Source: an uncultured Dehalococcoidia bacterium (GTDB taxonomy: Bacteria > Chloroflexota > Dehalococcoidia > Lucifugimonadales > UBA3495). Taken from it: a stretch of 64,000 nt of DNA. Both the position numbers and the translations under genes were made by a program. Shown here one piece after another: positions 15,183 to 49,556 of the stretch. Below the pieces are notes generated by a model. The model saw only the letters and a list, made by a program, of their open reading frames with translations. It searched no databases and was not told the origin of the DNA. The stretch lies in contig CATMOE010000003.1 of NCBI GenBank assembly GCA_950072105.1, forward strand, positions 1 to 64,000. The letters run 5' to 3'. Every line of letters starts with the position of its first letter. Position 1 is the stretch's first letter.

Positions 15183-16580
15183 CTATTGATGAAATGGCGC
15201 GCCGTTAACGCCGTTTGGCGCCGATAGAGGTTGGGAATGGCCTTTGGGTTCCTCCGGCAGAACGGGTTGGCGGGCGCCTGGAGGGGCTTTGGCCCAGGTA
15301 TCGCCCCAGGGAACGTCGGGGAGGCTTCGAGACCGGCGCACTTCGTTGATGGTTAATACTCCACGGTCCAAAAGTTGGGCCTCCCGGGACACGCGGCTGT
15401 TTTCGTCTTCCCGCGGGGCCTCAATGCTACTGATGTCGAACTTGACTTCCAGATCGGGATAGCCGAATCGGGGCAATAGCATCCGGTTGAGCTGCTCTTC
15501 CAAGAATCCGAGCTCGGGCAGCATCGTGTTTCGCCAGAAGATCCGCTCGGAGGCGTTGATGTTGGAGAAAGTTGCCCGCTCAAGGTCGGATAGTAAAGGC
15601 TTGGGCACACCGTAAACCCGGCTGACTTCCTCAAGGCTCCATCGAAGTCCTTGTATGAAGTCCATGTCACGATGGCTGAATCCCAGGGTTTTGATGTCAC
15701 GAACGAAGCTGGCGATGGCCGGCCTGTTGGCGTTGCCAGGGCCCCGGTGCCGGGCTTCCCAGCGGTTGTAGAACTCTTCGATCTCCATATCGGTCATGCT
15801 GTCGTTGGTGAGCAGCACAAAGTCCGGCCGGGCCGAATTCCGGAGGAAGTTGCGGTTAGATCTGAGACCTTCCAGCCCCATGTCGACAGACATCCGGGCT
15901 GGGGCTAGGGGAGACAGCCCGGCGTACTCTTCCAGAGGGTTAAAGTAACGGAGCCACAGTATCTCGTTAGTGGTGTAGGCAACCGGTCCGTTCCGGCCCG
16001 TATACACAAACCCCTTTATGTATTGTTCCTTATCCGGAATTATGTTCACCCGGTCGGGCCGTAGCGGCCATATCTGCCACCGGCCATGTTCGTCCCGTTC
16101 CAGCGCCCAGAAAGCTGAGCCCCACAGGTTAAGGTAGATCTCCGTAGCCCGCCATAGGTCGCCCCTAGTGAACCACGGATTCACCTGGTCCAGAACCTGT
16201 TGTAAAGGGTGGGACGATCCCACAGGCAAGCTCAGACCTTCCGGTGTCTTTCGATGGACGACGAGAGGTGGGCGAGTCAACGCCTCAGCCCGCAGTTTTA
16301 CCGCGGCGTAAACGGAAACTGCCTTGACATAGTAATCACCGTATTCGGTCCTGGCCCAGCCGCCGTTCCGTCCAACCACTCCATCCATCCAGTCTAGATC
16401 GGTGGCTGATGCCCGGTTGGCCCGCTGCCGGATGGAGTGGCTTTGTAACAATGTGGAGATGCTCTGACCGCCGAACCGGAACGTTCGCCCCAAAGGGACG
16501 GCGGGGAAGCTGTCTTTGAAACGCCGGTACACCTGCCCCAAGGCGGGCAAGGATGCCGAGAGTATAGATCTGAAGGTCAT
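15183..16580 (-). CDS. Phage portal protein, HK97 family
   Basis: VYAAV, HPL..L...NP, L.LWG.A, PL.PDRV, GLSP, YGVP, FSN, LT.NEVR...LP. Confidence 0.9.
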   Translation of the reverse strand: MTFRSILSASLPALGQVYRRFKDSFPAVPLGRTFRFGGQSISTLLQSHSIRQRANRASATDLDWMDGVVGRNGGWARTEYGDYYVKAVSVYAAVKLRAEALTRPPLVVHRKTPEGLSLPVGSSHPLQQVLDQVNPWFTRGDLWRATEIYLNLWGSAFWALERDEHGRWQIWPLRPDRVNIIPDKEQYIKGFVYTGRNGPVAYTTNEILWLRYFNPLEEYAGLSPLAPARMSVDMGLEGLRSNRNFLRNSARPDFVLLTNDSMTDMEIEEFYNRWEARHRGPGNANRPAIASFVRDIKTLGFSHRDMDFIQGLRWSLEEVSRVYGVPKPLLSDLERATFSNINASERIFWRNTMLPELGFLEEQLNRMLLPRFGYPDLEVKFDISSIEAPREDENSRVSREAQLLDRGVLTINEVRRSRSLPDVPWGDTWAKAPPGARQPVLPEEPKGHSQPLSAPNGVNGAPFHQ

Positions 16581-16730
16581 ATTGATATCCTCCTAGCACC
16601 GAGGTTTGCGATCAGCCGTGGGAGCAACCGTTCACTTAGGGTATGTTGACGGCCGCAGGGGCGGTGGTAGAACAGGCGTACCACGAACGGCTTTGGTGAC
16701 GTGTTAATCAAAATGGGAAGCAGCGGAATT

Positions 16731-18080
16731 TCAAGTCCACAGTCTGGTGTGGTGATCCTGTTCGACGAAGGCCAGCATCAGCGCGTCGGCCTTGTCGGGC
16801 GAAGGGAGGCCGCGGCCGCGCATGGCTTCCTTGCTTTCGAGATATATTCTGCCATGGCTATCGTAGCTGTAGCGCAACGCGGCCAGTTCTCCCATCAACT
16901 GGCTGTCCCGGGGAATCTTGATCTGCCCGGAGGCGAACAACTCGCTTAACCTCCAGTAGCCCTCGGCCCGGGTGTTGGTAAAAATACCTTCGTGCCGGGC
17001 CCGCCGGGCCACGTTGATGCCGCGCACGTTGTATCCTTGCTCGCGGAGCCGGTCCACGACGCCGGCTCCCACGCCGATCTCGTCGATGTACATGCGGTCG
17101 GGGTGGCACTCCTTGATCGCCGCCACCACCCAGCCCGCCAATTGCATGGTGTCCAGTTTTTGGAAAGTCTGGATATCCTCCACTCGGTTGCCCCGCCGCC
17201 TAAGGATGACACTGCGGTCGGAGCCGAAGCGGGCCACGTCTACCGCTAGAACGGTGTCCTCGGCTTCATCCGGCTGATCTTCATCGGTGGCAGGAACTTG
17301 GTCTTCGACGGCGGCCTCAATGTCGGACAGCTTGATGAGGGTATCCTCCGCCTGATCAGGGAATTCCCCCAGAACCCGGGCCAAGAAGATAGGATTGTTT
17401 TCACCCCAGGTCTCCCGGCGCTCTTCAACCCATTCGGCGGTGGTCAGTCCCGGGACCACCACCTTGTTAGACGTTACGTTGGGGCTGTCCAGCGCGGAGA
17501 TAGTGACCGTGTAATAGAGGCGCCGTTCTTGGTAAAAGGCCGGGCGGAAGGCCCCGGTGACAGTGGTGGGATTACCGATAAGCAACAGACGAGGTGATGC
17601 CGAGGTCATCACCGCTTCCACGGCCTCGTAAATCTCGTCGCTCAAACCCTCGGCTTCATCAACAACGATGAGCATGTTGGGGCTGTGGAAGCCCTGGAAT
17701 TGGTCGGCAGTGTCGGCGGACAGGCCGATGGCGTAGCGGTCATCGGCAAGCTCCCACCGAGTGTCCAAGATCTTGCCGCCCAGAACGTCCGGCGCCCGGC
17801 GGTACAAACGGCGGATCTGCCGCCACAATACGTGCCGGACTTGGCGAAAGGTTGGGGCGGTGCTGAGTACGATGGCGGGATCGTGGCAATAAAGGAACCA
17901 CAAGACTGCTACGGCGGCGCAGTATCCTTTCCCCAGTCCGTTGCCCGACTTAACCGCCACCCGCCGGTTTTCAAACAGCGCGGAAAGCACCTCCTCTTGT
18001 TTGCTCCATAACTCTACGCGCAAGATATCCTTGGCGAACTCCAAGGGGTTCAGCAATTGTCCATCCACGCCTTCGGCCAT
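16731..18080 (-). CDS. terL: Phage terminase large subunit
   Basis: Walker A KSGNGLGKG, Walker B IVVDEA, IGNP, nuclease motifs AVDVARFGSD, DEIGVG, SPDKADAL. Confidence 0.9.
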   Translation of the reverse strand: MAEGVDGQLLNPLEFAKDILRVELWSKQEEVLSALFENRRVAVKSGNGLGKGYCAAVAVLWFLYCHDPAIVLSTAPTFRQVRHVLWRQIRRLYRRAPDVLGGKILDTRWELADDRYAIGLSADTADQFQGFHSPNMLIVVDEAEGLSDEIYEAVEAVMTSASPRLLLIGNPTTVTGAFRPAFYQERRLYYTVTISALDSPNVTSNKVVVPGLTTAEWVEERRETWGENNPIFLARVLGEFPDQAEDTLIKLSDIEAAVEDQVPATDEDQPDEAEDTVLAVDVARFGSDRSVILRRRGNRVEDIQTFQKLDTMQLAGWVVAAIKECHPDRMYIDEIGVGAGVVDRLREQGYNVRGINVARRARHEGIFTNTRAEGYWRLSELFASGQIKIPRDSQLMGELAALRYSYDSHGRIYLESKEAMRGRGLPSPDKADALMLAFVEQDHHTRLWT

Positions 18081-18086
18081 TCAACG

Positions 18087-18290
18087 CTACTCCGAAGGCC
18101 GGTAATCAGATCGGATCGCCACGGTCCGCGAAGCCGGGGCGGACAGGCTGGGGTTGGCCGCGTCTGAACCGGACGAATCCCCGGGACTAAACAGAAAGCC
18201 GCAATCTTGGCATCGGAAAACCTGGTGGTTATCTGGAAGTTTCTTGTCCAATTGGATCACACGGATAGAGTTACAACGTCGGCAGCGCAA
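18087..18290 (-). CDS. Small zinc-ribbon protein
   Basis: CRRC...CQDC; GGAGG upstream; ends 6 nt before terL. Confidence 0.65.
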   Translation of the reverse strand: MRCRRCNSIRVIQLDKKLPDNHQVFRCQDCGFLFSPGDSSGSDAANPSLSAPASRTVAIRSDYRPSE

Positions 18291-18583
18291 GCTGGATCAC
18301 CTCCGCAATTAGTAAAGGGGCGGATCGGCCACAGCCGGGTCCGTCCCCGCTATATCACGCTAGGCTTTGGGAATCGAGACTGTCAACCACCGGCGAGTCA
18401 TCGGCTGCTGGTACAAACCGTGTCTGCGCGGCCGCGCGCCGGAGGTTATCGGGTAGGGAGGACGAGAGGCCGCGACGGTCGGTTTGGGTACACCGTGGTG
18501 GGCCGAAGATAGCTATGCCTTGCTTTAGGTGTGAACCATGAAGAACGGGAATACGATCTAGAACAGAAATCCGTTGGGCATGC

Positions 18584-18749: not shown

Positions 18750-18935
18750 TTAATCAGGGTTGTGCTTCACGATCAGAGGCGCGACTCGCGCGTCGATGTC
18801 TCCCAAAGCCACACCGGCATCGGACCGGGCTACACCTAGATGGGCCGACCGCTGAATCTCTTCCCAATCGGCTTCCAGTTCGTACTCGTCTCTTAGTTCC
18901 TCTAGTAGGGCGTCTAAAGCTGTTTTATCAAACAT
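18750..18935 (-). CDS. Small acidic hypothetical protein
   Basis: 61-aa ORF with protein-like composition, followed by a terminator. Confidence 0.6.
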   Translation of the reverse strand: MFDKTALDALLEELRDEYELEADWEEIQRSAHLGVARSDAGVALGDIDARVAPLIVKHNPD

Positions 18936-19388: not shown

Positions 19389-19394
19389 GTTGGC

Positions 19395-23508: not shown

Positions 23509-24375
23509 ATGGAGCCAGTTCTGGAAATTAGTATGGTTAGGGAGAATCTGGCCTTAGCCATCGCTGTCTGGACGGCGGTGAAAAAGGGGTTGATCACCAC
23601 GGCCCACCTCCCGACGGGCCGCGCCGCGGTTACTTCTGACGCGGGCCGAGTCGTCGAGATCTTCAATCCGCTGGAACTGCACGGAGAGGGCGACTTGATC
23701 CGGGGAGCGACTAACCAGGTGAGAGCGGCCTTCGCTTTTTCCGTGATCCAGACCCATCGCATCCTGGAATCGGTGTACGACGGTCCACCGTTGCAAGACC
23801 CAGACCAAGAGCGGAAGGCGGCCCGGTGCACCATCTACCTGCTCAACAACTCCATGCGCCGGGGAATGTTGACCCCCACTTGGTCCTGCCCTCTGGGATT
23901 CCGCCGAAATTTCAAAGTTGGCTCTATCTCCTTCGCGTTAGACGCTTCGGAGCTGGACGGAAAGACGGTTTATTGGGATGACTTCGGCGGCCTGGAGAAA
24001 TATCTAGAACTGCTGGCCTATCTGGCCGAGCAGGCGAAGGAACCTCCTCAGAAAACCGCGCCTCGCGCCAGGGGTCAGGCCGCTCAAGAATCACGATCGA
24101 TCCGCCAAGATTTCATGGAGGCGGCTTCAGCCTCCGACCCAGTGTCCCAGTTCATCGGCGCCCGCTGCATGATTGGCCCTGAGGCCCAGACCATCGCCGG
24201 AGGGCTGTACGACGAATACGTGAATTGGTGCCAAGAAACCGGGCAAGAGACACTGGGTCAGCGCAGTTTCGGTATGCAGTTGACCAAGCTTGGGTTTACG
24301 AGGCGTAGGCGGGGAAGAGGGCGCCACTGGTGGCAAGGCATCGGATTGGCTGGGGCGACCGGTCAACGGCAGTAG
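23509..24375 (+). CDS. Hypothetical protein with C-terminal phage primase/D5-type winged-helix domain
   Basis: C-terminus DPV..FI..RC...LY..Y..WC...G......F...L...GF......W.GI.L. Confidence 0.6.
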   Translation: MEPVLEISMVRENLALAIAVWTAVKKGLITTAHLPTGRAAVTSDAGRVVEIFNPLELHGEGDLIRGATNQVRAAFAFSVIQTHRILESVYDGPPLQDPDQERKAARCTIYLLNNSMRRGMLTPTWSCPLGFRRNFKVGSISFALDASELDGKTVYWDDFGGLEKYLELLAYLAEQAKEPPQKTAPRARGQAAQESRSIRQDFMEAASASDPVSQFIGARCMIGPEAQTIAGGLYDEYVNWCQETGQETLGQRSFGMQLTKLGFTRRRRGRGRHWWQGIGLAGATGQRQ

Positions 24376-26153: not shown

Positions 26154-26192
26154 CCCCCCTTTCGTAACGGGGGGTTGGGGGGATTTCCCCTA
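26152..26192 (-). repeat. REP-like palindromic repeat, family A (copy 2), between convergent stop codons
   Basis: AGCCCCCCTTTCGTAACGGGGGGTTGGGGGGATTTCCCCTA. Confidence 0.8.
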
Positions 26193-26897
26193 CCGACCCC
26201 GCTGGTCACCCCACAGCAGAATGTGCAGCCGGGTGGAGAACCGGAACCCGTGCTTGACGCAGGCCTCAGATACCCACTGTTGGCGGTTTCGGAGGACCTC
26301 CTGGTCGCGCCCTTCCGGAAGGAGGATGATTCGTAGGGGAGGAATGTGGTATTTCTCCGCTAGGCCGCAAACCTCTTCGATGTCTTGAGGCTCCACGACG
26401 ACGAACTTGAAGTAGGCGTTGGGAATGCGGGAGAAGCTCTCCAGGGTACCTGGCACCAGCCGCCGCTCCAACCGGTTGCCCGAGGTGCTCAGTTTGGGAG
26501 AGACGTTCCATTGATCGATGTCCCGCTCCATCTCCGGTATGGGAGCGATGGTGCCGTTGGTTTCCACTTCGCAATAAAACCCCTGTTGCTTCAATTCGGA
26601 TATCAGCGGGGCCAGCTCCGTTTGCTGCAACAAGGGCTCGCCGCCGGTCACAACCAGGTGGGGACATTCGTAGGACAGAATCTTCTCACGGACCTGTTCC
26701 GTGTCTAGGGCTATGACCTCTTTCTTGTAATCGTAGTTTTCCCAGTCCCAGGTGTACTTTGTATCGCACCAACTACAGGATAGGTTGCACAAGGATAGAC
26801 GCAGAAACACCGTGGCGACGCCGATGGTGGCCCCTTCCCCTTGCAGGGAGTGGAAGATTTCTGGCTGACCGCCGGGTTGCCGACTTAACTTCAGCAC
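26190..26897 (-). CDS. queE: 7-carboxy-7-deazaguanine synthase (radical SAM)
   Basis: FHSLQGEG, CNLSCSWCDT, TGGEP, ETNG, SPK. Confidence 0.93.
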   Translation of the reverse strand: MLKLSRQPGGQPEIFHSLQGEGATIGVATVFLRLSLCNLSCSWCDTKYTWDWENYDYKKEVIALDTEQVREKILSYECPHLVVTGGEPLLQQTELAPLISELKQQGFYCEVETNGTIAPIPEMERDIDQWNVSPKLSTSGNRLERRLVPGTLESFSRIPNAYFKFVVVEPQDIEEVCGLAEKYHIPPLRIILLPEGRDQEVLRNRQQWVSEACVKHGFRFSTRLHILLWGDQRGR

Positions 26898-26910
26898 GGG
26901 CTATCCATCA

Positions 26911-27657
26911 TCAAAGGCCGTCCTGAGACCGAGTGAGGGCCGGGTCCGAGACTCCGGCTTCTTCGAACCCTTTGGCCCGAAGCAAACAACTGTCACAACT
27001 TCCGCAGGGGACCGCGCCTCCCTGGTAACAACTCCAGGTAAGTTCCAGCGGCGCTTTCAGCCGCAGGCCCAGCTTCACGATCTCCATCTTAGACAACTCT
27101 ATGATCGGGGTTTTGACCTGGATAGGGATCTGGTATTCGGTCCACAACTTGCTGCCGTAGGCCAGCGCTTCGGTCATCTTGTGAAAGTATTCGGGGCGGC
27201 AATCGGGATAGCCGCTGTAGTCGATGGCGTTGGGGGCCATGTAGAGCAGGGCTGCCACTTCGTCTGGAGGAACGCCGTCTATCTCAAGAGCGTACAGCAC
27301 CTGACTCTCTAGGTAGGCAGCGGCCAAAGACAGGAAGATGGTGTTGCGGAGGGGAACGTAGGTTATGGGGACGCTGGCGCCCATCCGGTCGAGGGAACGG
27401 TCCTCGGGAACGGGAAACCGGTCGGGGTTGGTCAGCGCGGAATACCAGGCGACTTGGCCGAGAAAGGAGATGTCTAGCAATTGGTGTTGAATACCCAAGA
27501 CCCCGGCGATCTCTTGAGCGCAGTCCACTTCTTTACTGTGACTTTGTCCGTAGTGGAAGGTGATAGCGGACAGGTTGCCGGTCTCTTGCAGCGCTTGAAC
27601 CGCGACGGTCGTGGAATCCAGGCCTCCGGAGAGAAGGGTCACGGCGTAGCTGGGCAT
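26911..27657 (-). CDS. queC: 7-cyano-7-deazaguanine synthase
   Basis: LSGGLDS, YVPLRN, YPDCR, WSCY...CGSCDSC. Confidence 0.95.
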   Translation of the reverse strand: MPSYAVTLLSGGLDSTTVAVQALQETGNLSAITFHYGQSHSKEVDCAQEIAGVLGIQHQLLDISFLGQVAWYSALTNPDRFPVPEDRSLDRMGASVPITYVPLRNTIFLSLAAAYLESQVLYALEIDGVPPDEVAALLYMAPNAIDYSGYPDCRPEYFHKMTEALAYGSKLWTEYQIPIQVKTPIIELSKMEIVKLGLRLKAPLELTWSCYQGGAVPCGSCDSCLLRAKGFEEAGVSDPALTRSQDGL

Positions 27658-27660
27658 GCC

Positions 27661-28080
27661 TTATTGCCCGCCGGAAAACTCGGCGTATTGGTCAAGGGAT
27701 TCCCACAGCCGAACCTTGACCGGGGACACCCCGCAAAGCTCGACCACTTTGTTGTAGAGTTCTCTGGAAAGGACTTCGCAAGATGGGTTCTCTTCGTGGA
27801 ATTGGTAGATCCGGCCTTTAGAGGCAGGCGTCAGACCTTCGATCAACTCAATGTCCCTGCTGTTTACTAAAAATGAGTGGTCCCAGTTGTCGTCGATCCA
27901 CGCTTTAACCCGGTGCTTCAATTCGGTGAAGTCGAACACCAAACCCTGGGAATCCAGCGTGTCGGATTGCAAGAAGACCTCGGCACGGTAGGTATGGCCG
28001 TGGGGAAAGGCGCACTTGCCGTCATAGTCCAGCAGCCGGTGGCCGCTATCGAAGGTCGTTTCGATCCTTACCAGGTACAT
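27661..28080 (-). CDS. queD: 6-carboxytetrahydropterin synthase
   Basis: FDSGH, C..PHGHTY, DH, NPSCE, WES. Confidence 0.92.
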   Translation of the reverse strand: MYLVRIETTFDSGHRLLDYDGKCAFPHGHTYRAEVFLQSDTLDSQGLVFDFTELKHRVKAWIDDNWDHSFLVNSRDIELIEGLTPASKGRIYQFHEENPSCEVLSRELYNKVVELCGVSPVKVRLWESLDQYAEFSGGQ

Positions 28081-28087
28081 GCGCCCT

Positions 28088-28525
28088 TCAGTTCCCGGGA
28101 TGCTCTACGGTTACCGCGGTGTGTATCCCGCCCCTGACTTTGTAGTCCAGAGTCACTTTCATGCTTCTGGGGTGGCAGAGGGCGACCAGGTCCAACAATA
28201 TGCGGTTGGCCGCGTGTTCTTGGACTATGCCAACGTCCCGGTAGGAGAGGAGGTAGTACTTCAATGACTTGAGTTCGATGCAGCTTTCGCCGGGGATGTA
28301 GGAGATGGTGAGGGTGCCGTAGTCGGGCAAACGAGTCCAAGGGCAGACTGCCGTGAACTCGTCTGTATCTATGTCTACCTGGGTCTCCTGGCCGGGGTAT
28401 TCGTACCGGAAGGCCAGTAGACACTCGGCATCGATGACCGCTTCCTCGCGGACTAAAACGGGGCGGTCCAGGCTTTCGTATTGCTGTTGAAGTTGGGCGT
28501 CTTTCAGTTCCGGAATCGTAGCCAC
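28088..28525 (-). CDS. queF: NADPH-dependent preQ0 reductase, single-domain type
   Basis: EFTAVCP.T.LPD, ELKSLKYY, QE, RGGI; GTG start at 28525 after AAGGGGG. Confidence 0.92.
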   Translation of the reverse strand: MATIPELKDAQLQQQYESLDRPVLVREEAVIDAECLLAFRYEYPGQETQVDIDTDEFTAVCPWTRLPDYGTLTISYIPGESCIELKSLKYYLLSYRDVGIVQEHAANRILLDLVALCHPRSMKVTLDYKVRGGIHTAVTVEHPGN

Positions 28526-28561
28526 GGGGCCCCCTTTGATATCAGGAAATCTATTGAGGAC

Positions 28562-37041: not shown

Positions 37042-37668
37042 ATGAAGAATCTATTAGATCAACGATTGATAAAATCAGCAAGGCTACACAGTGACCAGCG
37101 AGGGATCACCGGCCTAGAGACAGCCATCGTTCTCATCGCCTTCGTTGTAGTCGCCTCGGTGTTCGCCTTCGCCGTCCTCAGCACCGGGCTTCTCAGCTCG
37201 GAAAAGAGCAAAGAAACTGTATTAGGAGGCTTGGAGGAGACTTCGTCGACCATTAGCGTAAGAGGCTCGGTTATCGGGGACTCCAACACGGCTAAGACTT
37301 TCATCGATACCGTCAAGTTTACTCTGAGCAGTGCCGCCCAGGCATCCGACACGGTGGACCTGTCCACCACCGGTGTGGTGGTTACCTACCTGGACCAAGA
37401 CCAAGCTATCAACTGCGAGAACCCCCAGAGTTTTGACGGCGATGCCGACACCGCCGAATGTTCATGGTCCACCAGTTGGGTTATCGGCTCCGGAGACCTG
37501 GTGGACCCGGGCGAACAAGTGGACATGACGGTTACTCTGACCAACCTGTCCCCGTTACTGCCTAAGAGCAGGGAATTCACGATTCAAGTTAAGCCGAACA
37601 AGGGTGCAGTGGTCATCGTTAATCGGACCACACCGCCAGAGTTGAAAGCCATCATGGAGCTTAATTAG
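37042..37668 (+). CDS. Archaellin (archaeal flagellin FlaB/ArlB-like) 2
   Basis: Same N-terminal helix and C-terminal motifs as the upstream paralogue. Confidence 0.88.
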   Translation: MKNLLDQRLIKSARLHSDQRGITGLETAIVLIAFVVVASVFAFAVLSTGLLSSEKSKETVLGGLEETSSTISVRGSVIGDSNTAKTFIDTVKFTLSSAAQASDTVDLSTTGVVVTYLDQDQAINCENPQSFDGDADTAECSWSTSWVIGSGDLVDPGEQVDMTVTLTNLSPLLPKSREFTIQVKPNKGAVVIVNRTTPPELKAIMELN

Positions 37669-41367: not shown

Positions 41368-41501
41368 CGATATCAACAAGTTAACCGGGTTGGCAGCCAG
41401 GCCAACGGGCCATATTTTTCGGAAGGGACAGACCCCGACGTGGATCTGTCCCTTTCTTCGTTGGTCTGGCGGCGCATCCCAAATCAGCGGGAGGTGAAAC
41501 A

Positions 41502-42314
41502 TTGACGGGGACAGGCTTGGGGCTGTGGGAACGAGAGAGGCTGCTGGAGGCGCTGGACGCTTACCAGAGAGGCCTGAGCGACGCCCCACTCTTACACAAA
41601 TGGACGGAAAGCCAGGCGGGCATCAGCGAGAACGAAGACGGCCTGGCGATGCCCTTCGTAATCTCCACCGACGAGGTTGATCGCCACGGCGACGTAATAA
41701 TGGCGTAAGGATGGCGCCTGGACGCCTATCGGAACAACCCGGTGTTTTTGTGGGCTCACGACTACGCCCGCCCGGTGATCGGCCGCGCTGTCGAGGTGTG
41801 GCAAGAGCCTCACAGACTTCTGGCCAAGATGAATTTTGCCCCCACCGAGTTCGCCCAGGAAGTCGCCATGCTGTACCGCACCGGATATCAAAAGGGTGTG
41901 TCGGTGGGATTCAAGCCCCTTCGTTATGAAGAACGGCGGGATGAGAAGACCGGAGCATTTCTGGGGATACGTTTCCTAGAGCAGGAACTGCTGGAGACCA
42001 GCGCGGTTCCCGTTCCGGCAAATCGAAACGCCTTACGACGTGCTCTGGACCAAGCTCCTGTGGTGGGTGAGTACTTGCGCCTGGTCGACGCCATTGGAAA
42101 TGCAGCCGAGGCCCCATCAAGCAACATAAATCGGGCCGCTGTTTGTGTGCATGAGGGGATCTGGCCGGAGTTGGCCGCCCGAGTGGACGACATTAGCAAA
42201 TTGATCGGAGAGTTAGCACAGATGCTGGAGGAAGCGGACCAGTTTGGCGAACCGGGGGAAGCCATGGGGCAACTGGACCAGGTGCTATCGCTGATTCGGC
42301 AAGCCCGCGCCTAG
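41502..42314 (+). pseudogene. HK97-family prohead protease interrupted by an in-frame TAA (41706-41708)
   Basis: ST..VDRHGD.I.A*GW.LD.Y..NPVFLWAHD...SVGF.P...ELLE.SAVPVPAN, all in one reading frame. Confidence 0.85.
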
Positions 42315-42393
42315 AAAACCAACGTGACGAAATACCGGGTTCGGTCCCGGGACCCGGCGCCAAGGCAAAAAACCAGCATTCTTGGAGGTTAAT

Positions 42394-43725
42394 ATGACCA
42401 TCGCGACTCAAGACCTAGACCTGATCAAACGGGAAGTGGCTTCGATACGGGAGTATTACCAGTCCCGAATGGACGCTGAAATTCCGCCTATAAAAGAGGA
42501 AGTGGAACGGGTTGGCGCCCAACTTGCCCGGGTACAAGATATGTGGCGTGAAGGGGAAAAGCGCGCCATCCTATCCAAGTTCGCCGGCGGTGACCGGGCA
42601 CGGGTGCCCTACGGCAAGTATACCGGGCTAGACCCCTTGGACATGGCCTGCGTCCGTAGCCTGCTCAAAGCCCAGCTAAGAGAACCCTCCGGCCTGAACT
42701 CTCGCATGTTGGAGGACTGGCAAAGCAACATAAAAGCGGCCATGGACTCCACCTCGGCGGGGAGCGGTGACGAACTGGTAGATACCCAGGAAGCACGGGC
42801 ACTGTGGGACGACGTCAATCTGGAAACCGCCGTGGCCCCGTTGTTAAACACCATTGAAATGCCCAGTAACCCGTTCCAGATTCCCCTCCAGTTGGGCGCG
42901 GTTAACTGGTTTCCCGGCACGGAGAATGTGGCCACCAAGAGCACGACCTTGGCCACCGCCCGCCAAACTCTGACCGCTTACGAGCTGGTAGCCGAGGTCC
43001 CCTGGTCCTACGACCTGGACGAAGATGCCGTCATCGCCATGATGGAGGAGCTGCGGCGAGGCCTGCTGCGGAACGCCCGGGAAGTCATTGACGACGTTCT
43101 TCTCAACGCCGATACCACCACGACCAACAACATCAACGCCGACGGAACCACCATCACGACCACCGACGCCGGCAAAGGCCATTGGTTGGTGGGCTTCGAC
43201 GGTCTGCTACATCTGCCTTTGGTCGACAACACCAGCCAGGTCAACGACCACAACGCCGCGGTCTCCGACGACATGTTCAACGAGGTCCGGGCCAAGCTAG
43301 GAAAGTATGGGGTCCGTCCTTCGGAGTTGGTGTATGTCTGCGACATTAACACCTTTATCCGGTCCCTCAGCGTGGACAATTTCCGAACCTTGGACAAATT
43401 CGGCCCGCAAGCCACTGTGCTGACCGGTCAACTGGGATCTGTGGAAGGTATTCCCGTCATCGTGTCGGAACAGATGGGCTTGGCTGACACCGACGGAAAA
43501 GTCACCGATGGAGGTAACGGCACCGACACCGGAAGGCTGCTTATCGTCAACCGCAGCCAATGGCGCGTCGGCTTCAAGAGGGAACTGGCTATCGAAACGG
43601 TTCGCGATGCCCAAAAGCGGCAGAACATCATGGTTGTCAGCTTCCGGATCGCCTTGCAAGAACGCAGCGGGACCAGATCCACCGCAACCCATACGGCTCT
43701 GCAGTACAACATCACCGGCGTCTAA
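42394..43725 (+). CDS. Phage major capsid protein (HK97-like fold)
   Basis: N-terminal coiled-coil delta-like domain, SGDELV, D..LLNAD, GFDGL, G.V.GIPVIVS; position directly after the protease. Confidence 0.8.
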   Translation: MTIATQDLDLIKREVASIREYYQSRMDAEIPPIKEEVERVGAQLARVQDMWREGEKRAILSKFAGGDRARVPYGKYTGLDPLDMACVRSLLKAQLREPSGLNSRMLEDWQSNIKAAMDSTSAGSGDELVDTQEARALWDDVNLETAVAPLLNTIEMPSNPFQIPLQLGAVNWFPGTENVATKSTTLATARQTLTAYELVAEVPWSYDLDEDAVIAMMEELRRGLLRNAREVIDDVLLNADTTTTNNINADGTTITTTDAGKGHWLVGFDGLLHLPLVDNTSQVNDHNAAVSDDMFNEVRAKLGKYGVRPSELVYVCDINTFIRSLSVDNFRTLDKFGPQATVLTGQLGSVEGIPVIVSEQMGLADTDGKVTDGGNGTDTGRLLIVNRSQWRVGFKRELAIETVRDAQKRQNIMVVSFRIALQERSGTRSTATHTALQYNITGV

Positions 43726-43787
43726 ATATCAGACTCTAGCTCAATCTAAATGAAACGCTCTGTTAAGAGCGGAACCAAGGAGGATTC

Positions 43788-44246
43788 ATGACAACCATCA
43801 GCCGGGCAGACCCCACCGCCGAAGCGGTCAAGAACATGCTTCCACCGGATCAGCCGGGAATCGCTTATGTAATGAAGCGGTACATCGTTGAAGACCTGGC
43901 GTCGGGTAGTGCCAACGCTTTCGCCGTCCAGAACCCTGAGGGCGTTGATTGCGTCGTCACCAACGTGATCGTTGATATCGCCACCGCCGGGGGCACCGCC
44001 AGCTCGGTTTTGGACGTGGACGTGGTGGCCGACGCCACGTCCACTGGGGACACGATCATCGACGGATTGGACCTGAACGCCGCCGGTGTCGCCGACCGTC
44101 ATGACAATGCCGGATCCAACGGCGGCGAACCCAAGAAGTGGGACAAGAATGGAGGAAGCAATGACTACGTTACCGGGAAGATTTTGGCGCAGAATGCCGC
44201 CAGTTTGGGCGGTAAGGTAATCATCGAGTACGTCCCCCTAAGTTAG
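43788..44246 (+). CDS. Putative capsid decoration/structural protein
   Basis: Beta-rich, directly downstream of the capsid gene, ends G.V.IEY. Confidence 0.55.
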   Translation: MTTISRADPTAEAVKNMLPPDQPGIAYVMKRYIVEDLASGSANAFAVQNPEGVDCVVTNVIVDIATAGGTASSVLDVDVVADATSTGDTIIDGLDLNAAGVADRHDNAGSNGGEPKKWDKNGGSNDYVTGKILAQNAASLGGKVIIEYVPLS

Positions 44247-44318
44247 GCCTGTATAGGCTCGATGTAGTTTGCGAGATTTCGTTCTTATTTTCGACACAGG
44301 AGGCCTGATAGATTCGCT

Positions 44319-44933
44319 ATGAGCTATACCGAAGGAGCACATAACTCACCGGCCGACACCAAGGACCGGCTGGTCCGCATCGGCTCCAAATACCAGGCCT
44401 CCGCGCCTACTGTCGCCGATGGAGACAATGCTTACCTACTACTAGACTCAGCGGGCCGCCTCTTGATATCCGGCGCGGCGGCCCATGATGCCACGGCCGC
44501 GGGCAACCCCCTTCGCGTCGGGGGCGTGTATCGCACTGCCATACCGGCGGTGGCCGCGGGAGACATCGTAGACCTATTGCTGGATGCTGCCGGCCGCCTA
44601 AGGTTGGCCTTCAGTACCGACACGTTCAAGATTATCGACGCCGTGGCGATCACCGCCGGCACGCCCGCCACCGTCTGGACTCCGGCAAGCGGAAAGAAGG
44701 TGCGCCTGCTGGGCTGGGCTTTTTCATCCACCGCATCCGCGGCGCTGGAGTTTCAAGACAGCGGAGCCGCGGGCACGGTGATAGCCCAATCACCTTTGCT
44801 GGCTGCCGCCGGTCTCCACAACGCGCCCCCGCTGGGCGAAGGGATCCTGCTGGCCGCGGCCGACAATACCCTGGAATTGGACGTAACGGGCAACAGCACC
44901 GTATCCGGTATGGTGTTCGGCGTCGAAGAATAA
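44319..44933 (+). CDS. Putative phage structural protein (internal L.LD.AGRL repeat; C-terminal TP.SGK.VRL domain)
   Basis: RBS AGGAGG; Ala/Gly/Thr-rich; in operon. Confidence 0.6.
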   Translation: MSYTEGAHNSPADTKDRLVRIGSKYQASAPTVADGDNAYLLLDSAGRLLISGAAAHDATAAGNPLRVGGVYRTAIPAVAAGDIVDLLLDAAGRLRLAFSTDTFKIIDAVAITAGTPATVWTPASGKKVRLLGWAFSSTASAALEFQDSGAAGTVIAQSPLLAAAGLHNAPPLGEGILLAAADNTLELDVTGNSTVSGMVFGVEE

Positions 44934-44999
44934 GGGCGATTGAATCACCCGTGAGAAAAACTGGAGGTTAAGCATGACATCTGAGGAGAAAAAATATCT

Positions 45000-45227
45000 A
45001 TGACACGCCAGGAACAAACGGCTGCCATCACCCCCAGCATAGCCAAACCCCAGATCGATCCCCCGGTAATAAAAGGCAGTAACCGGTCCACCAAGCAAGG
45101 CCGGGCCCGAGAAGGCAATTTATTGATAGCGACGGCGCTCCTCACCGGCTCGCCGGCGCCGGAAGAAACTCTTATCGACGTGGATGCCTATGGAGACGGT
45201 ATGGCGTTTCGATTCACCTGGAGGTAG
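45000..45227 (+). CDS. Hypothetical small protein in the capsid operon
   Basis: Fills the gap between operon genes; start uncertain. Confidence 0.35.
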   Translation: MTRQEQTAAITPSIAKPQIDPPVIKGSNRSTKQGRAREGNLLIATALLTGSPAPEETLIDVDAYGDGMAFRFTWR

Positions 45228-45229
45228 CA

Positions 45230-45502
45230 ATGGCAATCTCAGGCACCATCAAAGTAACATCGGCGGGCACCCGGGTCCAGGCGGCCCATAAAGGAAACGT
45301 TCGGGCCGTGGTTTTCAAAGCCCGGGCCGGCAACACCGGAGACGTGTACCTAGGCGGCAACGATGTTTCGTCCACCGACGGTATGACATTGAGTCCTAGT
45401 GAGTCCATTCAGGTAAGCCTTGCCAACCCGGAGTCTACCTCCCAATTCTGGGCCGACGCGGCCAGCAACAACGACCAGATCGATTTCGTCGGGAGCCCGT
45501 AA
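45230..45502 (+). CDS. Small beta-rich phage protein
   Basis: KA..GNTG.VYLGG..V....G..L.P.ES pattern; GGAGG RBS. Confidence 0.65.
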   Translation: MAISGTIKVTSAGTRVQAAHKGNVRAVVFKARAGNTGDVYLGGNDVSSTDGMTLSPSESIQVSLANPESTSQFWADAASNNDQIDFVGSP

Positions 45503-46548
45503 ATGGTTCAACCTCAAGAGACCCACCGCCCGCTTCTACGCATGGTTTTGGAGTCCTACGTCAGCGTTACCGGCGCCACTTACGCCGCTAAGGCCGGAGA
45601 TCGGCTGATCGGCGTCAACCGCGCCGGTACCGTCACCGTAACGTTACCACCGCCCAACTCCGCGCCGGCCGGACTTATACCGTTAAGGACGAGTCCGGCG
45701 CAGCCGCAACCAACAATATCACTGTGGCTACGGAAGGATCGGAGACGATCGATGGGTCGGCTACGGACGTCATATCGGACAATTACGGAGCCAAGCACTA
45801 CTACTCCGATGGCTCCAACTGGTTTGAAGTTCCCTTGCTCCCGGCGGCGGCCATCGCCCATTCCGCCACTACCGGTCAAGGTTCCGGTGACCATCATGCC
45901 CAAGCACATACTGCCGCCCACGCCAGCGGCGGCGCCGACGCCATCAAGATTGACGACCTTGCCGCCCCCGATGACAACACCGACTTAGATTTTTCCACCA
46001 GCGCCCACGGTCTAGTTCCGAAAGGAACCAATGCCGGTAACTTCTTGAAAGACGACGGAAGTTGGGCCGCTCCCGCCGGTGGAAGTGGAGCCATAACTAG
46101 AGAAGGCGGCAGCACTACCGAAGCAACCACGACAAGCACCAGCCTGGTGGATATAATTTCAGCCGCCAGCTTATCCATTGCTGCCGGGGCTCCCATCGAG
46201 GTTATATACGTCGCGCGGAAAACCAGCGGGGCCGCCAACGATGCCAACTCCGCGTTCACGATCAACGCCACTAACGTCGGGTCTGAAAAGGTATTTAGTA
46301 CGACTAACCAGGCGGAAGCTTTCGTGGAAAATTGGCTATTTGGCACAAGAGTCACTAACTACACAGGAGTTCCGCGCCACATTCGTCTCGCTTCCGGGCC
46401 AGCCGGTTCATACGATATAACGGCCCACGGAATGCTTACACTTCCCACGGTAACAGTTACTGACCTCAACACCAGGGGTAGCGTGGACGACGCGTTAATC
46501 ACCTTGGGCCACGATGAGTACCACATCTACTCGAGGGCAGTAAGCTAG
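45503..46548 (+). pseudogene. Fibre/spike-like phage protein split by a frameshift near 45646-45650
   Basis: TVTLP in one frame continues as TAQLRAGRTYTVKDESGAAATNNITVATEGSETIDG in the frame of ORF 45724..46548; HT..HASGG.D and FLK.DGSWA.P fibre-type motifs. Confidence 0.7.
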
Positions 46549-47190
46549 ATGCTATACATCTTTGCGGGATTCCCAAGAAACGGTCTTCACGCCGGCGGAA
46601 TCCAATTCGCCGTGGAAGAGGTAGAGCAGCTTGCCATCCTGGAACATGAGCCGCGGGCGCAGTACCGCAAAGCAGGCGTATTTTCCGTGACTGAATACGG
46701 TGAGGAATGGTTGATGCCGGTGGAATATCGGGTGAGCCGAATGTGCCTGAGAGACGGTATCACTTGGGACTGGTTTCCGGAAAACTGGACATTTGGCAAC
46801 GGCGTAACCATCAGCAAGACGATGGCCAGTCCGGAATACAAGACCGTGGTCCATGGAACAGACTTGATCTTGGACGAATTTCTCGCCATATCAGGATCTG
46901 CCAGGTTAGTGGACCTTGGATTAGAGCAAACGCATATCAAGCACGAAGGTTGGAAAGAATACGAGGCGCGCTGGGTTCCAGGAACCTGCCCCCAGGAGAG
47001 CCACGTGGTACACCTAACCTGTCTTGTTACCGTCCACCCCCTGCCTGAATTCGCCTACCAGCGCATCAGGGAGTTGATCGAGGAATCGGGGGAGCTAAGG
47101 GAGCCGGATTCCTATAGCTCTGAGGACGGCAAGCACTTTGCAACAAATCGATGCTGGGACGGCAAGCCGGTCTATACGAGGATGAGTTGA
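46549..47190 (+). CDS. Hypothetical protein
   Basis: 213-aa ORF abutting its neighbours. Confidence 0.55.
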   Translation: MLYIFAGFPRNGLHAGGIQFAVEEVEQLAILEHEPRAQYRKAGVFSVTEYGEEWLMPVEYRVSRMCLRDGITWDWFPENWTFGNGVTISKTMASPEYKTVVHGTDLILDEFLAISGSARLVDLGLEQTHIKHEGWKEYEARWVPGTCPQESHVVHLTCLVTVHPLPEFAYQRIRELIEESGELREPDSYSSEDGKHFATNRCWDGKPVYTRMS

Positions 47191-47519
47191 CAGTTTACAG
47201 ATGTCTCAGGATTGTAAACACAGGCCAGTGGCTTGATGTTCTATTTACCTCTTCCAGCGAGGATTTTGAAGTTCCTGATCTTTCCCACCGGACGGATATT
47301 GCGAATGCTCTCGGCCTTGATCCCGCTGAGCTTGAGGCCTTGGATACTAATGATGACCAAAGGAGTGGCCTCCTCTTAGGTATACCAATACTACCGGAGG
47401 CGCCACCGGACCCAGACCAGGTCAGGACACGAGAACTTCTCTCCATACCCCGGTCCAACTGGACGGCCGCTCAACGAGCCGAATTATTGGAACTCATCGC
47501 GTTGGAGAATTTGAGATGA
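47187..47519 (+). CDS. Hypothetical protein
   Basis: TTG start overlapping the upstream stop; ATGA overlap with the downstream gene. Confidence 0.5.
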   Translation: MTVYRCLRIVNTGQWLDVLFTSSSEDFEVPDLSHRTDIANALGLDPAELEALDTNDDQRSGLLLGIPILPEAPPDPDQVRTRELLSIPRSNWTAAQRAELLELIALENLR

Positions 47520-47701
47520 TCCCCATCAACAAAGGCATTTTAGCTCGCCGATGGGCTGCCGTCGCGGCTCTGGGAATCGTATCCGTGACCGCCGTCGAGC
47601 TGTATGCCCTCGCCCAAGGGATAAACGGCACGGCGCTTACAGCCTCCCTGGCGGCCATCGCCGGCCTGGGAGGAACGGGCATCGGACGGCTGCTCAAATG
47701 A
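47516..47701 (+). CDS. Small two-TM membrane protein (holin-like size and topology)
   Basis: 61 aa, two hydrophobic segments, basic termini, ATGA overlaps on both sides. Confidence 0.55.
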   Translation: MIPINKGILARRWAAVAALGIVSVTAVELYALAQGINGTALTASLAAIAGLGGTGIGRLLK

Positions 47702-48111
47702 CCAGCCAGCGAGTTTCATCACGGAGGACCCACAGCGTCAATGTTAGGCGCCGGGCGTACGTGGCGCAGGTTAACTCCCACGATTCCAATACGTCTAACA
47801 CCAGGGATACGTTAGTCACGCCGTCCAAGGGTAGACGGATCCGTCTATTGCGAGTGAGAGTGATCCAGGAACTAGCCGCCGGCTGTCATCTGTGGGAATT
47901 GTACTTCGGCACTGGGGCCGACATAACCATCAATCCGGACAACGCAATCGACATCTTAGACATTCCTGACTTAGGTGAAGCCAGCACTCGGACTTTCCTG
48001 AGGGAAGAAGGCCCCAGAGGTCTCCGGGATGAGGTTCTTAGCGGGCGGTGGCTGGGGACTCCTCCCACGACGGTGCACAAAGTAATCGTCGAATACTCCG
48101 ACGAATCCTGA
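47698..48111 (+). CDS. Hypothetical protein, paralogue A (Arg-rich N-terminus)
   Basis: Aligns with the next ORF: HLWEL.FG, IDIL.IPD.G...TRT....GPRG..DEVLSGRW. Confidence 0.75.
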   Translation: MTSQRVSSRRTHSVNVRRRAYVAQVNSHDSNTSNTRDTLVTPSKGRRIRLLRVRVIQELAAGCHLWELYFGTGADITINPDNAIDILDIPDLGEASTRTFLREEGPRGLRDEVLSGRWLGTPPTTVHKVIVEYSDES

Positions 48112-48114
48112 GCC

Positions 48115-48534
48115 ATGCCATTGTCCTTAGTTCGCCGGAGCGTCCGCCGGACCCATCGGGCCGCGATCCGCCGCCGGCCATATCAACTCCGGGTAAAGAT
48201 AGTGGATGGCAGCACCAGCATCAGCCGGCAACACCTGCTGGCGCCGGTAAGGGGCTACCATGTCCGGCTCATTCGAGTCAAGGTGCTTCAGACTTCCAGC
48301 GACGGCCGGCATTTGTGGGAATTGTTCTTCGGGGATGCCGGTAACATGATTACCGCTCCCAACCGGTCGATCGACGTTCTGGCCGTGCCTGACGCGGGCA
48401 GCGCAGTAACCCGCACGTATTCCAGGAGCCAGGGACCCCGAGGCAAAAAGGACGAAGTGCTCAGCGGAAGATGGCGAGGAGTGGCTCCAACGTCAACTAC
48501 TAAAATCATTATCGAATACACCGAAGAGGCGTAG
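48115..48534 (+). CDS. Hypothetical protein, paralogue B (Arg-rich N-terminus)
   Basis: Tandem paralogue of 47698..48111. Confidence 0.75.
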   Translation: MPLSLVRRSVRRTHRAAIRRRPYQLRVKIVDGSTSISRQHLLAPVRGYHVRLIRVKVLQTSSDGRHLWELFFGDAGNMITAPNRSIDVLAVPDAGSAVTRTYSRSQGPRGKKDEVLSGRWRGVAPTSTTKIIIEYTEEA

Positions 48535-48604
48535 CACCGCCTTGATTTCCGTAGTGGGAATTCAAATCCGTTCCCATTTTCAGGAAGGCTATAGGGAGTA
48601 AAAC

Positions 48605-49426
48605 ATGGCGCGTGAAGCATATAGGTCCCTGTATGGTGACCTAACCAAGCTCAAAGACGATAGTCTACTGAAGGACCCAGCTGCCGGTGCCGGTGACGAC
48701 AACGAGATGTTCCAGTTGCTTCTGGCCGTATCGGACTGGGTGGATCATTTCTGTAACCGTTATTTCTATTCCAAGACGCAGACAATGGAGTTCGACGGCA
48801 CCGGCTCCACCAGGCTGCTGATTCCCGATCTGGTGTCGCTGACTTCTCTAAAAGAGGATTCCACCGACGACCAATCGTTCAACGAAACATGGGCGGCCGG
48901 CGATTATCGGCTTGAACCCTATAACGGCGAACCGGAACAGCACTGGGGTGAGCCTCATACCTCTATCCGAGTCCGGCAGCATGGCGCCAAGACCACATTC
49001 AGCAGTGGGGAGCAGCGATTCCAGATCGCCGGTGTCTGGGGCTATCGTCAATATAAAGAGGACAGTGGCACAGACCTCAACGACGCTGCAATGGCGGCCA
49101 CAAAAATCACTGTCCCGGTTGACGACGGGACTCAGTTCGCTATTGGACAGACCATTATGATAGGCAGCGAGCAGATGCTCATTACGGATATATCCACCAA
49201 CGATCTAACGGTGACCAGGGGGTTGAACGGCACCACCGGCGTCGCTCACGCCGACAACTCGGACGTTTTCACCCTCCGTTGGCCCGCATCTATCGAGCGT
49301 GCGGTTCTCATACAGGCCTCGCGAATTTGGACTAGGGCCGCCGATTTCGAGCCATTTTTCGTGGATGCCGACGTAGACACTGATGTTCGCATTCTGGGCG
49401 AACCCTATAAACGGCTTCCTATTTAG
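48605..49426 (+). CDS. Phage gp6-like head-tail connector/head completion protein with inserted beta domain
   Basis: Y..L..LK, D.....LL.A.S..VD..C.R.F, FDG.G, G.WGY, P..I..A....A, D.DV..L..PYKR. Confidence 0.7.
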   Translation: MAREAYRSLYGDLTKLKDDSLLKDPAAGAGDDNEMFQLLLAVSDWVDHFCNRYFYSKTQTMEFDGTGSTRLLIPDLVSLTSLKEDSTDDQSFNETWAAGDYRLEPYNGEPEQHWGEPHTSIRVRQHGAKTTFSSGEQRFQIAGVWGYRQYKEDSGTDLNDAAMAATKITVPVDDGTQFAIGQTIMIGSEQMLITDISTNDLTVTRGLNGTTGVAHADNSDVFTLRWPASIERAVLIQASRIWTRAADFEPFFVDADVDTDVRILGEPYKRLPI

Positions 49427-49522
49427 CCGGTTAACGGATATCTCCCCGTCCACCTGATTCTGGGTCCGCCGTCGACCGATTGCCCCATCGCGTTTCAAAG
49501 CCGCTCGGTTCATGGGCAATCG

Positions 49523-49556
49523 ATTCCCTCTGCGCATGTCCATGCGCAGAGGGAAT
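49523..49556. repeat. Perfect 16-bp inverted repeat at the end of the capsid operon
   Basis: ATTCCCTCTGCGCATG-TC-CATGCGCAGAGGGAAT. Confidence 0.85.

Follow-up and report, generated by a model that had tools for sequence, protein, structure and literature searches.

A tail-less, phage-derived head-and-packaging cassette as a putative near-core locus in a SAR202 (Dehalococcoidia) lineage

Gene transfer agents (GTAs) such as RcGTA are built from phage-derived structural and packaging genes that are fixed in the chromosome, inherited vertically under purifying selection, found at more than one locus and free of replication and integration functions, in all of which the locus described here resembles them. 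To our knowledge, every described GTA has a tail. Phage-inducible chromosomal islands that form capsids (cf-PICIs) are reported in a preprint to release tail-less, DNA-filled capsids that later bind the tails of other phages (bioRxiv 10.1101/2025.02.11.637232), and Caudovirales-derived loci without att sites or replication genes have been described in Thaumarchaeota, where the authors suggest that they may be domesticated and GTA-like (PMC6563490, Environ Microbiol 2019). Here we analyze a phage-derived locus in a 64-kb window, the first 64 kb of a 141-kb contig (CATMOE010000003.1, to whose positions 1 to 64,000 all coordinates refer) in the assembly of an uncultured Dehalococcoidia bacterium (GCA_950072105.1, hereafter G000), a metagenome-assembled genome of 4.08 Mb in 164 contigs. 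The window carries a DNA-packaging module at 15183-18290 (- strand) and a head module at 41502-49426 (+ strand), separated by 23 kb of host genes.

The same two modules had been proposed in an earlier, sequence-only reading of this DNA as a split, GTA-like system, and Pfam and PHROG scans of 64 and 26 window open reading frames (ORFs), respectively, confirmed both modules and the host genes between them. Judged from gene content and order in relatives, the two modules are halves of one tail-less, phage-derived head-and-packaging cassette. It probably entered an ancestor of a SAR202 (Dehalococcoidia) lineage, and the comparisons below show that it has since descended vertically, under purifying selection, as a host locus that is near-core. 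We consider it fairly likely that it represents a domesticated, GTA-like or cf-PICI-like head-only system that is near-core in the family, vertically inherited and, in the window’s genus, decaying. From the GTA proposal, the domesticated and inherited cassette stands; the absence of a tail sets it apart from every GTA described, and a GTA function would be deduced from the genes themselves. SAR202 bacteria are widespread in the ocean, and strains are now in cultivation according to the cultivation paper, in which the words phage, capsid, virus, prophage and gene transfer are absent. The literature searched on gene transfer agents in Chloroflexi and SAR202, on prophages, capsids and terminases in SAR202, and on tailless domesticated heads gave no description of such a cassette.

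The cassette is contiguous and colinear in G024 and in six of 80 head loci (L115, L121, L122, L124, L127 and L128). These 80 are the best of 314 related stretches from a species-representative genome collection, and all are titled Dehalococcoidia, Chloroflexota/Chloroflexi or SAR202. In the contiguous form all genes lie on one strand in the order o18750 (a small acidic protein gene), Zn-ribbon gene, large terminase gene (TerL), portal, a gap of 2-4 kb, protease, capsid, accessory genes and adaptor, and in L115 host ABC-transporter genes follow directly after the adaptor. Elsewhere host genes separate the two halves, at distances from 6.5 kb to 1.6 Mb; in the window’s clade the halves are divergent and about 20-35 kb apart. 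Two side observations concern contiguous cassettes. That of G024 has a transposase gene (phrog_11704; L024, 11031-12599) between its portal and protease genes, with a second copy a few kb away (L032, 2357-3115), and in L121 a gene for a reductive-dehalogenase-like Fe-S protein (1637-2941) lies between o18750 and the Zn-ribbon gene.

The point at which the cassette stops is best seen by comparison with L182, a 56-kb IMG/VR phage contig whose capsid and adaptor are 48% and 37% identical to those of the window. In L182, an adaptor of the same architecture is followed by Neck1, a tail terminator, two major tail (tail-tube) proteins, a chaperone-sized ORF and a tape measure, and the portal is fused to a head-morphogenesis domain. 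None of the neck and tail proteins of L182 matched G000, nor did the tape measure family PF10145, the sheath family PF04984 or Neck1 phrog_5, and PF10145 and phrog_5 were likewise without a match in all five closed or near-closed genomes that carry the cassette (G003, G007, G011, G019 and G014). Two further searches were uninformative: major tail phrog_10528 gave no match, with its control also unmatched anywhere, and PF05065 failed to retrieve even the window’s own capsid from G000, so that its silence says nothing about other prophages. Because G000 holds no match to the tail genes of L182 and the other tail markers were negative, the cassette is a head-and-packaging module that ends at the adaptor.

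Both modules carry the same cis element upstream. Copy 1 (18317..18347, - strand) is an inverted repeat, GGGACGGACC...GATCCGCCCC, followed by a T-run and situated 27 nt upstream of the Zn-ribbon start; copy 2 (41425..41452, + strand), with the repeat GGGACAGACC...GATCTGTCCC, likewise has a T-run behind it and is situated 50 nt upstream of the protease ORF. A covariance model of the element (R1) scores them at E 9.8e-6 and 1.5e-8, respectively. The consensus is an 11-bp inverted repeat, AGGGACRGACC, then 4-12 nt, GGTCYGTCCCT and a T-run, and the window contains no further copy of its core 10-mer. When 36 copies are aligned, 94% of the cells pair, A-U (24) alternates with G-C (10) at one pair, and none of 500 shuffles reached the observed covariation. 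Since the seed was chosen by its 5'-arm pattern, only the 3' arm and the T-run count as independent observations.

R1 placed the element upstream of the protease in 73 of the 80 head loci, 45 of them outside the seed. Four contiguous loci and 11 of 20 packaging loci have it upstream of the Zn-ribbon gene, and R1 gave almost no other match in 1.85 Mb. Genome-wide, the two leaders are the only significant R1 matches in G000, and the leaders are the top matches in G019, G005 and G011, where they lie 0.43 Mb, 1.6 Mb and 20 kb apart, respectively; in G007 only the protease copy is matched. A relaxed inverted-repeat pattern found 26 matches in the whole genome against 18-24 in shuffled genomes, and for this reason only strict or model-based matches are counted. 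Rfam contained no family for either leader and a simple terminator scan called neither window copy. A sigma-70-like -35/-10 pair, recognized by consensus match only, ends 7 nt before the protease copy. The element could act as the operator of a dimeric repressor or as a leader terminator that is read through by means of an antiterminator.

Among 166 genomes of the family, each at least 90% complete and together covering 23 genera, the capsid gene was found in 151, TerL in 154 and the portal in 149, nearly always once per genome and in 21-22 of the 23 genera. In the 4.08-Mb G000 assembly, too, the phage-like genes are all single copy. The cassette is rare in the class as a whole: it was found in six of 201 evenly drawn genomes including G000, of which two others belong to the same order and three to one other family. 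Capsid and TerL occur together in 149 of the 166 family genomes, capsid without TerL in two, TerL without capsid in five and neither in ten, a coupling given as counts among relatives that are not independent of one another. TerL is broken, partial or weak in four of the five genomes that have TerL only. The ten genomes without any of the three core genes are spread over six genera, so loss happened several times.

The neighborhood of each module also recurs across genera. An S9 peptidase gene stands beside the portal and a major facilitator superfamily (MFS) transporter gene beyond o18750, while the head module is preceded by GGT-HesB before the protease and followed by an SBP5 transporter after the adaptor; within 10 kb of the head locus, HesB is present in 46 and SBP5 in 25 of the 80. 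The capsid tree reproduces the main RpoB clades. Patristic distances of capsid and RpoB are correlated (Mantel Spearman 0.82 across 21 genomes and, within the family, 0.72 across 15; none of 5000 permutations reached either value), with a capsid/RpoB distance ratio of 0.94. Capsids of the four nearest genera share 82-83% identity with that of the window, and neighboring host genes share 56-85%. Single-copy presence, conserved flanks, tree congruence, low rates of protein change and a search for tail genes elsewhere in the genome had been put forward in the sequence-only reading as checks. They returned a near-universal single copy in the family, synteny conserved across genera, congruence of capsid with RpoB, low dN/dS (below) and no tail gene with the markers used.

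Closest matches among active phages had been named in the sequence-only reading as a sign of a prophage remnant. Complete phages are not the nearest relatives: phage-like contigs reach at most 48% capsid identity (L182), with four IMG/VR contigs of 13-16 kb (L162, L164, L169 and L177; 65-67%) left unannotated. IMG/VR holds 68 loci that matched the cassette, many of them short fragments listed as viral. As a separate observation, G027 carries extra TerL copies on C1 at 609-610 kb, 738.7 kb and 2655.7 kb, and G382 has three capsid copies. In some genomes the inherited cassette may therefore be accompanied by related elements, which are perhaps active prophages.

Selection was assessed from the ratio of nonsynonymous to synonymous substitution rates (dN/dS). 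Against L141 and L142 (dS about 1), the capsid has a ratio of 0.04-0.05, the protease one of 0.14-0.16 and the adaptor one of 0.08, and the remaining head genes range over 0.05-0.23, including 0.07-0.11 for 43788-44246, 0.10 for 44319-44933 and, against L141, 0.08 for 46549-47190 and 0.23 for 47151-47519; the host controls GGT and HesB give 0.07 and 0.02-0.03. Against G001, TerL, portal and o18750 stand at 0.15, 0.13 and 0.06, and six host neighbors at 0.03-0.17. The capsid is uninterrupted in 20 of 20 and in 78 of 80 loci and the protease in 76 of 79. Stops in portal matches lie mostly at match ends, beyond the conserved core (residues about 50-433), and were counted only if confirmed by tblastn; where a genome gives two TerL matches, these mostly belong to a single open frame that a linker insert divides (G009, for example, gives a single high-scoring pair). 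Host genes are also frameshifted in long-read assemblies (S9 in G021; SBP5 and a permease in G022), and some portal and TerL interruptions may therefore be assembly errors. G015, with several stops in portal and TerL and no capsid, is a true remnant. An additional observation concerns L043 (G007, 6457-10829), where about 2.8 kb interrupts TerL between its ATPase part and the remainder.

The window’s own genus presents a different picture from the family. Both lesions noted in the sequence-only reading proved to be real. The first is an in-frame TAA at 41706-41708 in the protease, replacing CAA, where all 17 of 17 relatives from other genera have a sense codon. The same TAA is found in two other, independent assemblies, L137 and L138 (99.7-99.8% DNA identity); the sister lineage L139/L140 (95% identical) keeps CAA and has TGG changed to TGA two codons later, a second and independent nonsense mutation. 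The second lesion is a 1-nt frameshift that splits a 348-amino-acid fibre-like gene; the gene is a single ORF in L141, and L138 has the same shift. A stretch of 1997 bp (44591-46587) is polymorphic for presence and absence, being missing in L139, and contigs of two RNA libraries bridge its position; its absence removes the frameshifted fibre-like gene and its neighbors. Because the protease nonsense mutation and the fibre-like frameshift are fixed, the window copy is probably impaired, while the system is maintained family-wide.

Further losses are found in the same genus. G001 retains GGT, HesB, the last 69 adaptor residues and SBP5, the whole head module being deleted; in its packaging half the portal is frameshifted and TerL intact. 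In G002 none of capsid, TerL and portal was found. In the comparison of recently diverged copies, dN/dS of the head genes is 0.13-0.48 (capsid 0.22, protease 0.25) versus 0.06 for GGT and HesB. Contigs from metatranscriptome runs X1, X6, X7 and X8 cover the flanking host genes at depth 10-580 and the head module only as short contigs at depth 0-8; contig depth cannot rank genes, DNA carry-over is possible, and we draw no conclusion on expression from these runs. As a separate observation, G004 (L247, 5328-10572) is another independent case of partial loss: beside HesB it has the protease, a frameshifted adaptor and the C-terminal piece of one cement paralogue, but no capsid gene.

The packaging module is transcribed from the - strand. 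Its outermost gene, o18750 (18750..18935), encodes a small acidic protein of 61 amino acids that has no Pfam or PHROG match and accompanies the module: it adjoins the Zn-ribbon gene and TerL in 14 of the 20 packaging loci (54-97% identity) and in four of the six contiguous head loci. In L094 and L129 it is a neighbor of the head module, and neither TerL nor the portal is present in the 10 kb on each side. The Zn-ribbon protein (18087..18290; 67 amino acids) matches PF13717 at 7.6e-5, below the Pfam cut-off, with a CxxC...CxxC pattern in its translation; its N-terminal half is kept upstream of TerL in 18 of the 20 packaging loci, and it is a possible substitute for a small terminase. TerL itself (16731..18080) was recognized by phrog_2 (4.6e-40) and by PF17289 (3.4e-5, above cut-off). 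Walker A G50/K51, E142 and the nuclease residues D281, D333/E334 and D429/D432 are invariant in 17 intact homologues, and matches to solved structures are marginal only. The portal (15183..16580) belongs to the HK97 family (PF04860, 5e-66, above cut-off), and its best solved relative is the RcGTA portal 6tba (3.8e-21).

The head module, on the + strand, opens with a prohead serine protease of family S78 with a C-terminal coiled-coil tail (41502..42314; PF04586, 29.1 bits, above cut-off; phrog_80). It is followed by the major capsid protein, which has an N-terminal delta-like domain (42382..43725; phrog_10, 4.9e-12). An alignment profile of the capsid matches the solved major capsid proteins 8ho3, 8zvi and 5tjt (1.9e-16), and Pfam PF05065 gives 21.7 bits, below its cut-off of 24.2; by these profile matches the capsid is of HK97 type. 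Nine further genes lie between capsid and adaptor. The first of them encodes a head accessory protein of 152 amino acids (43788..44246; 25 of 80 head loci), a homologue of which directly follows the capsid gene in L182 (31% identity); its ESM Atlas neighbors are viral, with a weak lead to a cement protein, and it is possibly a decoration protein. ESM Atlas led from two accessory proteins to unnamed viral clusters only. A protein of 204 amino acids (44319..44933; 11 of 80 head loci, no Pfam or PHROG match) belongs to the variable part of the cassette, and one of 90 amino acids (45230..45502) occurs in four of 80 head loci and also in G016, G005, G010, G024, G027 and G031. The frameshifted fibre-like gene (45503..46548) consists of ORFs 45503-45988 and 45724-46548 and matches baseplate phrog_20556 over a short stretch (3.5e-5); two ORFs that follow (46549..47519, namely 46549-47190 and 47151-47519) have no Pfam or PHROG match and are rare among relatives.

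Toward the end of the module, a hydrophobic protein of 61 amino acids (47516..47701; 40 of 80 head loci) precedes the cement paralogues. By its sequence it is probably membrane-spanning, and a holin-like role might be envisaged for it. Two paralogous jelly-roll proteins (47698..48111 and 48115..48534; 48-49 of 80 head loci) share 46% identity and have AlphaFold2 models with a predicted local distance difference test score (pLDDT) of 88. Foldseek matches them best to a trimeric cement protein, that of phage KHP40 (7dou_4; E 2.3e-4, template modeling (TM) score 0.53), which makes them candidates, as models, for cement or decoration proteins. The last cassette gene encodes a head-to-tail adaptor with an inserted beta domain (48605..49426; phrog_442, 1.4e-10; 62 of 80 head loci). 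Its AlphaFold2 model (pLDDT 86) resembles the solved adaptors of Mycofy1 (9lw9_C, TM 0.61), the RcGTA neck (6toa_C, 0.59) and DT57C (8hqo_P, 0.59), all values being normalized to the target, and in model comparison the inserted beta domain resembles tailspike N-termini; no sequence relative of the adaptor was found among solved structures. By these matches, the accessory genes appear to be head parts rather than tail parts.

No integrase, repressor or tail family was matched among the 64 Pfam-scanned and 26 PHROG-scanned window ORFs, and the same scans recognized no replication, integration or excision gene in or beside either module, which is a lack of matches rather than proof. The sequence-only reading had recognized no integrase, repressor, replication or tail genes. 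Integrase, repressor and tail stand; replication does not stand without qualification, as the last 90 residues of ORF 23509-24375 (288 amino acids), between the modules, resemble the C-terminal domain of D5/P4-type primases (phrog_1156, 9e-12). This ORF is kept between adh and prpD, in host synteny, in G001, G016 and G011, and a second copy of the domain was seen elsewhere in G000 (C4:61558-61770). The ORF, the queCDEF genes and a PD-(D/E)XK nuclease were considered as cassette parts and rejected for want of linkage in relatives.

The 23 kb between the modules otherwise encode an MFS transporter, an FAD oxidoreductase, ADH, PrpD, queCDEF, a Na/H exchanger, a two-component system, archaellin-like proteins, GGT and HesB, and Pfam scans show ordinary cell functions in the DNA outside both modules generally. 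The GC content of the window reveals no island, and no tRNA gene lies within it. Several observations on these host genes are recorded here. A compact queE-queC-queD-queF-like cluster occupies 26190-28717 (- strand) and was counted with the host genes. Two adjacent ORFs, 32241-32528 and 32547-33173, match the N- and C-terminal parts of the profile of a periplasmic binding protein (PF01497) and may be a broken host gene. Two adjacent archaellin-like genes (36309-36968 and 37042-37668; PF01917, 3e-22 and 1e-23) are present in this bacterial genome, which fits the archaellum loci that a 2026 preprint reports for Chloroflexota. Beyond the head module, the 5' part of the SBP5 gene (49800-50213) is repetitive, and the many alternative joints and loose ends that RNA-library contigs have at this place suggest a repeat linker that varies.

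We hypothesize that a single regulator, either a repressor acting on the palindrome or an antiterminator acting on the hairpin, would switch both operons on together. A protease-matured, HK97-type capsid would then assemble on the portal, and TerL would fill it with DNA, assisted by the Zn-ribbon and acidic proteins, which would take the role of a classical small terminase. The vertex would be closed by the adaptor, and the product would be a tail-less, DNA-filled head. Because TerL and portal are retained and co-regulated, DNA filling of the capsid is expected to be part of the function, and because neck and tail are missing the particle should be unable to inject by itself. Such heads would most likely serve host-controlled DNA export; more speculatively, they might need the tails of infecting siphoviruses or act as decoys that consume tails.

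Several points weigh against this interpretation. The system is known here from genes alone, with no particle, protein or packaged DNA observed. The tail search comprised two or three marker families and the proteins of one phage, and a divergent or non-homologous delivery device would escape it. No stopper or head-closure protein was recognized, which leaves DNA retention unexplained, nor was a lysis enzyme. The adaptor went undetected in 18 of the 80 head loci, and the element at nine of the 20 packaging loci and at both modules in G003; its 5'-arm invariance is a matter of construction, the seed rows having been picked on that arm. Among the 20 closely examined relatives the portal is interrupted in seven and TerL in four, and the packaging half could be dispensable in some lineages. 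Finally, the genomes are mostly metagenome-assembled, G000 itself being 92% complete with 6% contamination.

The alternatives differ in how they deal with these data. The sequence-only reading had offered a rearranged, decaying prophage, and its description fits the window’s genus with its lesions, deletion and absence, but not the family, where the cassette is maintained; patchiness, variable sites, widespread pseudogenes and relaxed selection, by which a cryptic prophage would be known, are found in that genus and not family-wide. A functionless remnant here and in relatives alike would account for the fixed protease nonsense and fibre frameshift in G000, the head deletion in G001, the missing core genes in G002 and in ten of 166 genomes, and the raised recent dN/dS (capsid 0.22 and protease 0.25 against 0.06 for host genes). 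A neutral remnant would not, however, persist in about 90% of 166 genomes and 21-22 of 23 genera, with uninterrupted capsid genes in 20 of 20 and in 78 of 80 loci, dN/dS of 0.04-0.16, divergence no faster than that of RpoB and an identical regulatory element kept on both halves, and we consider it highly improbable. A still-mobile satellite of the cf-PICI type, inserted repeatedly at the same sites, would explain a gene content that equals the cf-PICI packaging operon as the preprint describes it (HK97-type head, terminase, portal, adaptor and no tail; bioRxiv 10.1101/2025.02.11.637232), the D5-primase C-terminal-like ORF between the modules and the many fragments that IMG/VR lists as viral. 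Yet neither an integrase nor att-like repeats were noticed next to either module, the halves are split by host genes, the capsid tree follows the host and the flanks are conserved on both sides across genera, while the primase-like ORF consists of a C-terminal domain only and lies itself in conserved host synteny; this explanation is the least credible of all. The family-wide data agree with a domesticated element and rule out a neutral remnant or a mobile satellite.

Two other readings accept that the locus is maintained and differ on what for. The capsid may have been repurposed as a protein compartment, along an encapsulin-like path in which DNA packaging no longer matters. Capsid and protease are indeed the most uniformly intact genes (no stops in 20 capsids, versus seven of 20 portals and four of 20 TerL genes interrupted), and the capsid has the lowest dN/dS of the set. 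On this account, though, it would be hard to see why 154 of 166 genomes keep TerL and 149 the portal, with invariant TerL residues and dN/dS of 0.13-0.15, why TerL is degraded or weak in four of the five genomes that lost the capsid, or why one control element stands on both operons; no cargo-like gene was recognized, and we judge a compartment very unlikely. Anti-phage defence, in which tail-less heads would capture the tails or DNA of invading siphoviruses and so lower the infective yield, with gene transfer as a by-product, is also unlikely, if less easily set aside. It draws on the architecture of the adaptor and its 37% identity to that of siphovirus-like L182, which has Neck1 and a tail, on a cassette that stops exactly where a foreign neck and tail would dock, and on a system that is chromosomal, regulated and non-mobile. 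Against this, it rests on no experiment or co-occurrence test, the data do not separate defence from gene transfer, and no typical defence sensor or effector was seen, the PADLOC library not having been searched.

If our preferred reading of a domesticated, inherited head-only system is correct and most members of this large SAR202 family keep a regulated apparatus for loading capsids with DNA, the cassette is a candidate route of gene exchange or phage defence in SAR202, for which none has been described. Among domesticated phage elements it would be the first found to keep the head only, a position between tailed GTAs and mobile, head-only cf-PICIs that bears on the exaptation of capsids by cells. 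A bolder proposal, which we advance tentatively and regard as rather doubtful at present, is a new class of viriform: a fixed, tail-less capsid-packaging machine, near-core in a major SAR202 family and with a dedicated regulator that acts on the shared palindromic or terminator-like element, whose DNA-filled heads use siphovirus tails, and hence an immobilized counterpart of cf-PICIs that mediates gene exchange or phage interference. In practical terms, viral-prediction pipelines take pieces of this host locus for viruses (the 68 IMG/VR loci), which may inflate counts of SAR202 viruses and their host links.

Relative to the systems described so far, the cassette is closest to GTAs in its genetics, and RcGTA supplies both the closest solved relative of the portal and, in its neck adaptor, a match to the adaptor model. 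It differs in that no neck, tail tube, tape measure or sheath was found and in that packaging and delivery are known only as a proposal based on genes; the literature searched, as far as it extends, describes no GTA in Chloroflexota. The HK97-like siphovirus head module of L182 has the common order of portal, protease, capsid, accessory genes and adaptor, but continues into Neck1, terminator, tail tube, chaperone and tape measure where the host cassette stops. Encapsulins are HK97-fold shells without portal, terminase or protease and with a cargo, whereas here portal, TerL and protease are present and conserved and no cargo was recognized. The Thaumarchaeota loci are similar as conserved morphogenesis modules in host genomes; in the published account they are described as head-tail modules from few genomes and are not shown to be near-core, split or tail-less (PMC6563490). 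By analogy, the best mechanistic counterpart would be the cf-PICIs of Proteobacteria and Firmicutes, which have the same tail-less gene set (capsid of HK97 type, protease, portal, terminase and connector). Those islands are mobile, integrase-bearing, helper-induced and self-packaging, whereas the SAR202 cassette is integrase-free, split and syntenic, and has diverged together with its host.

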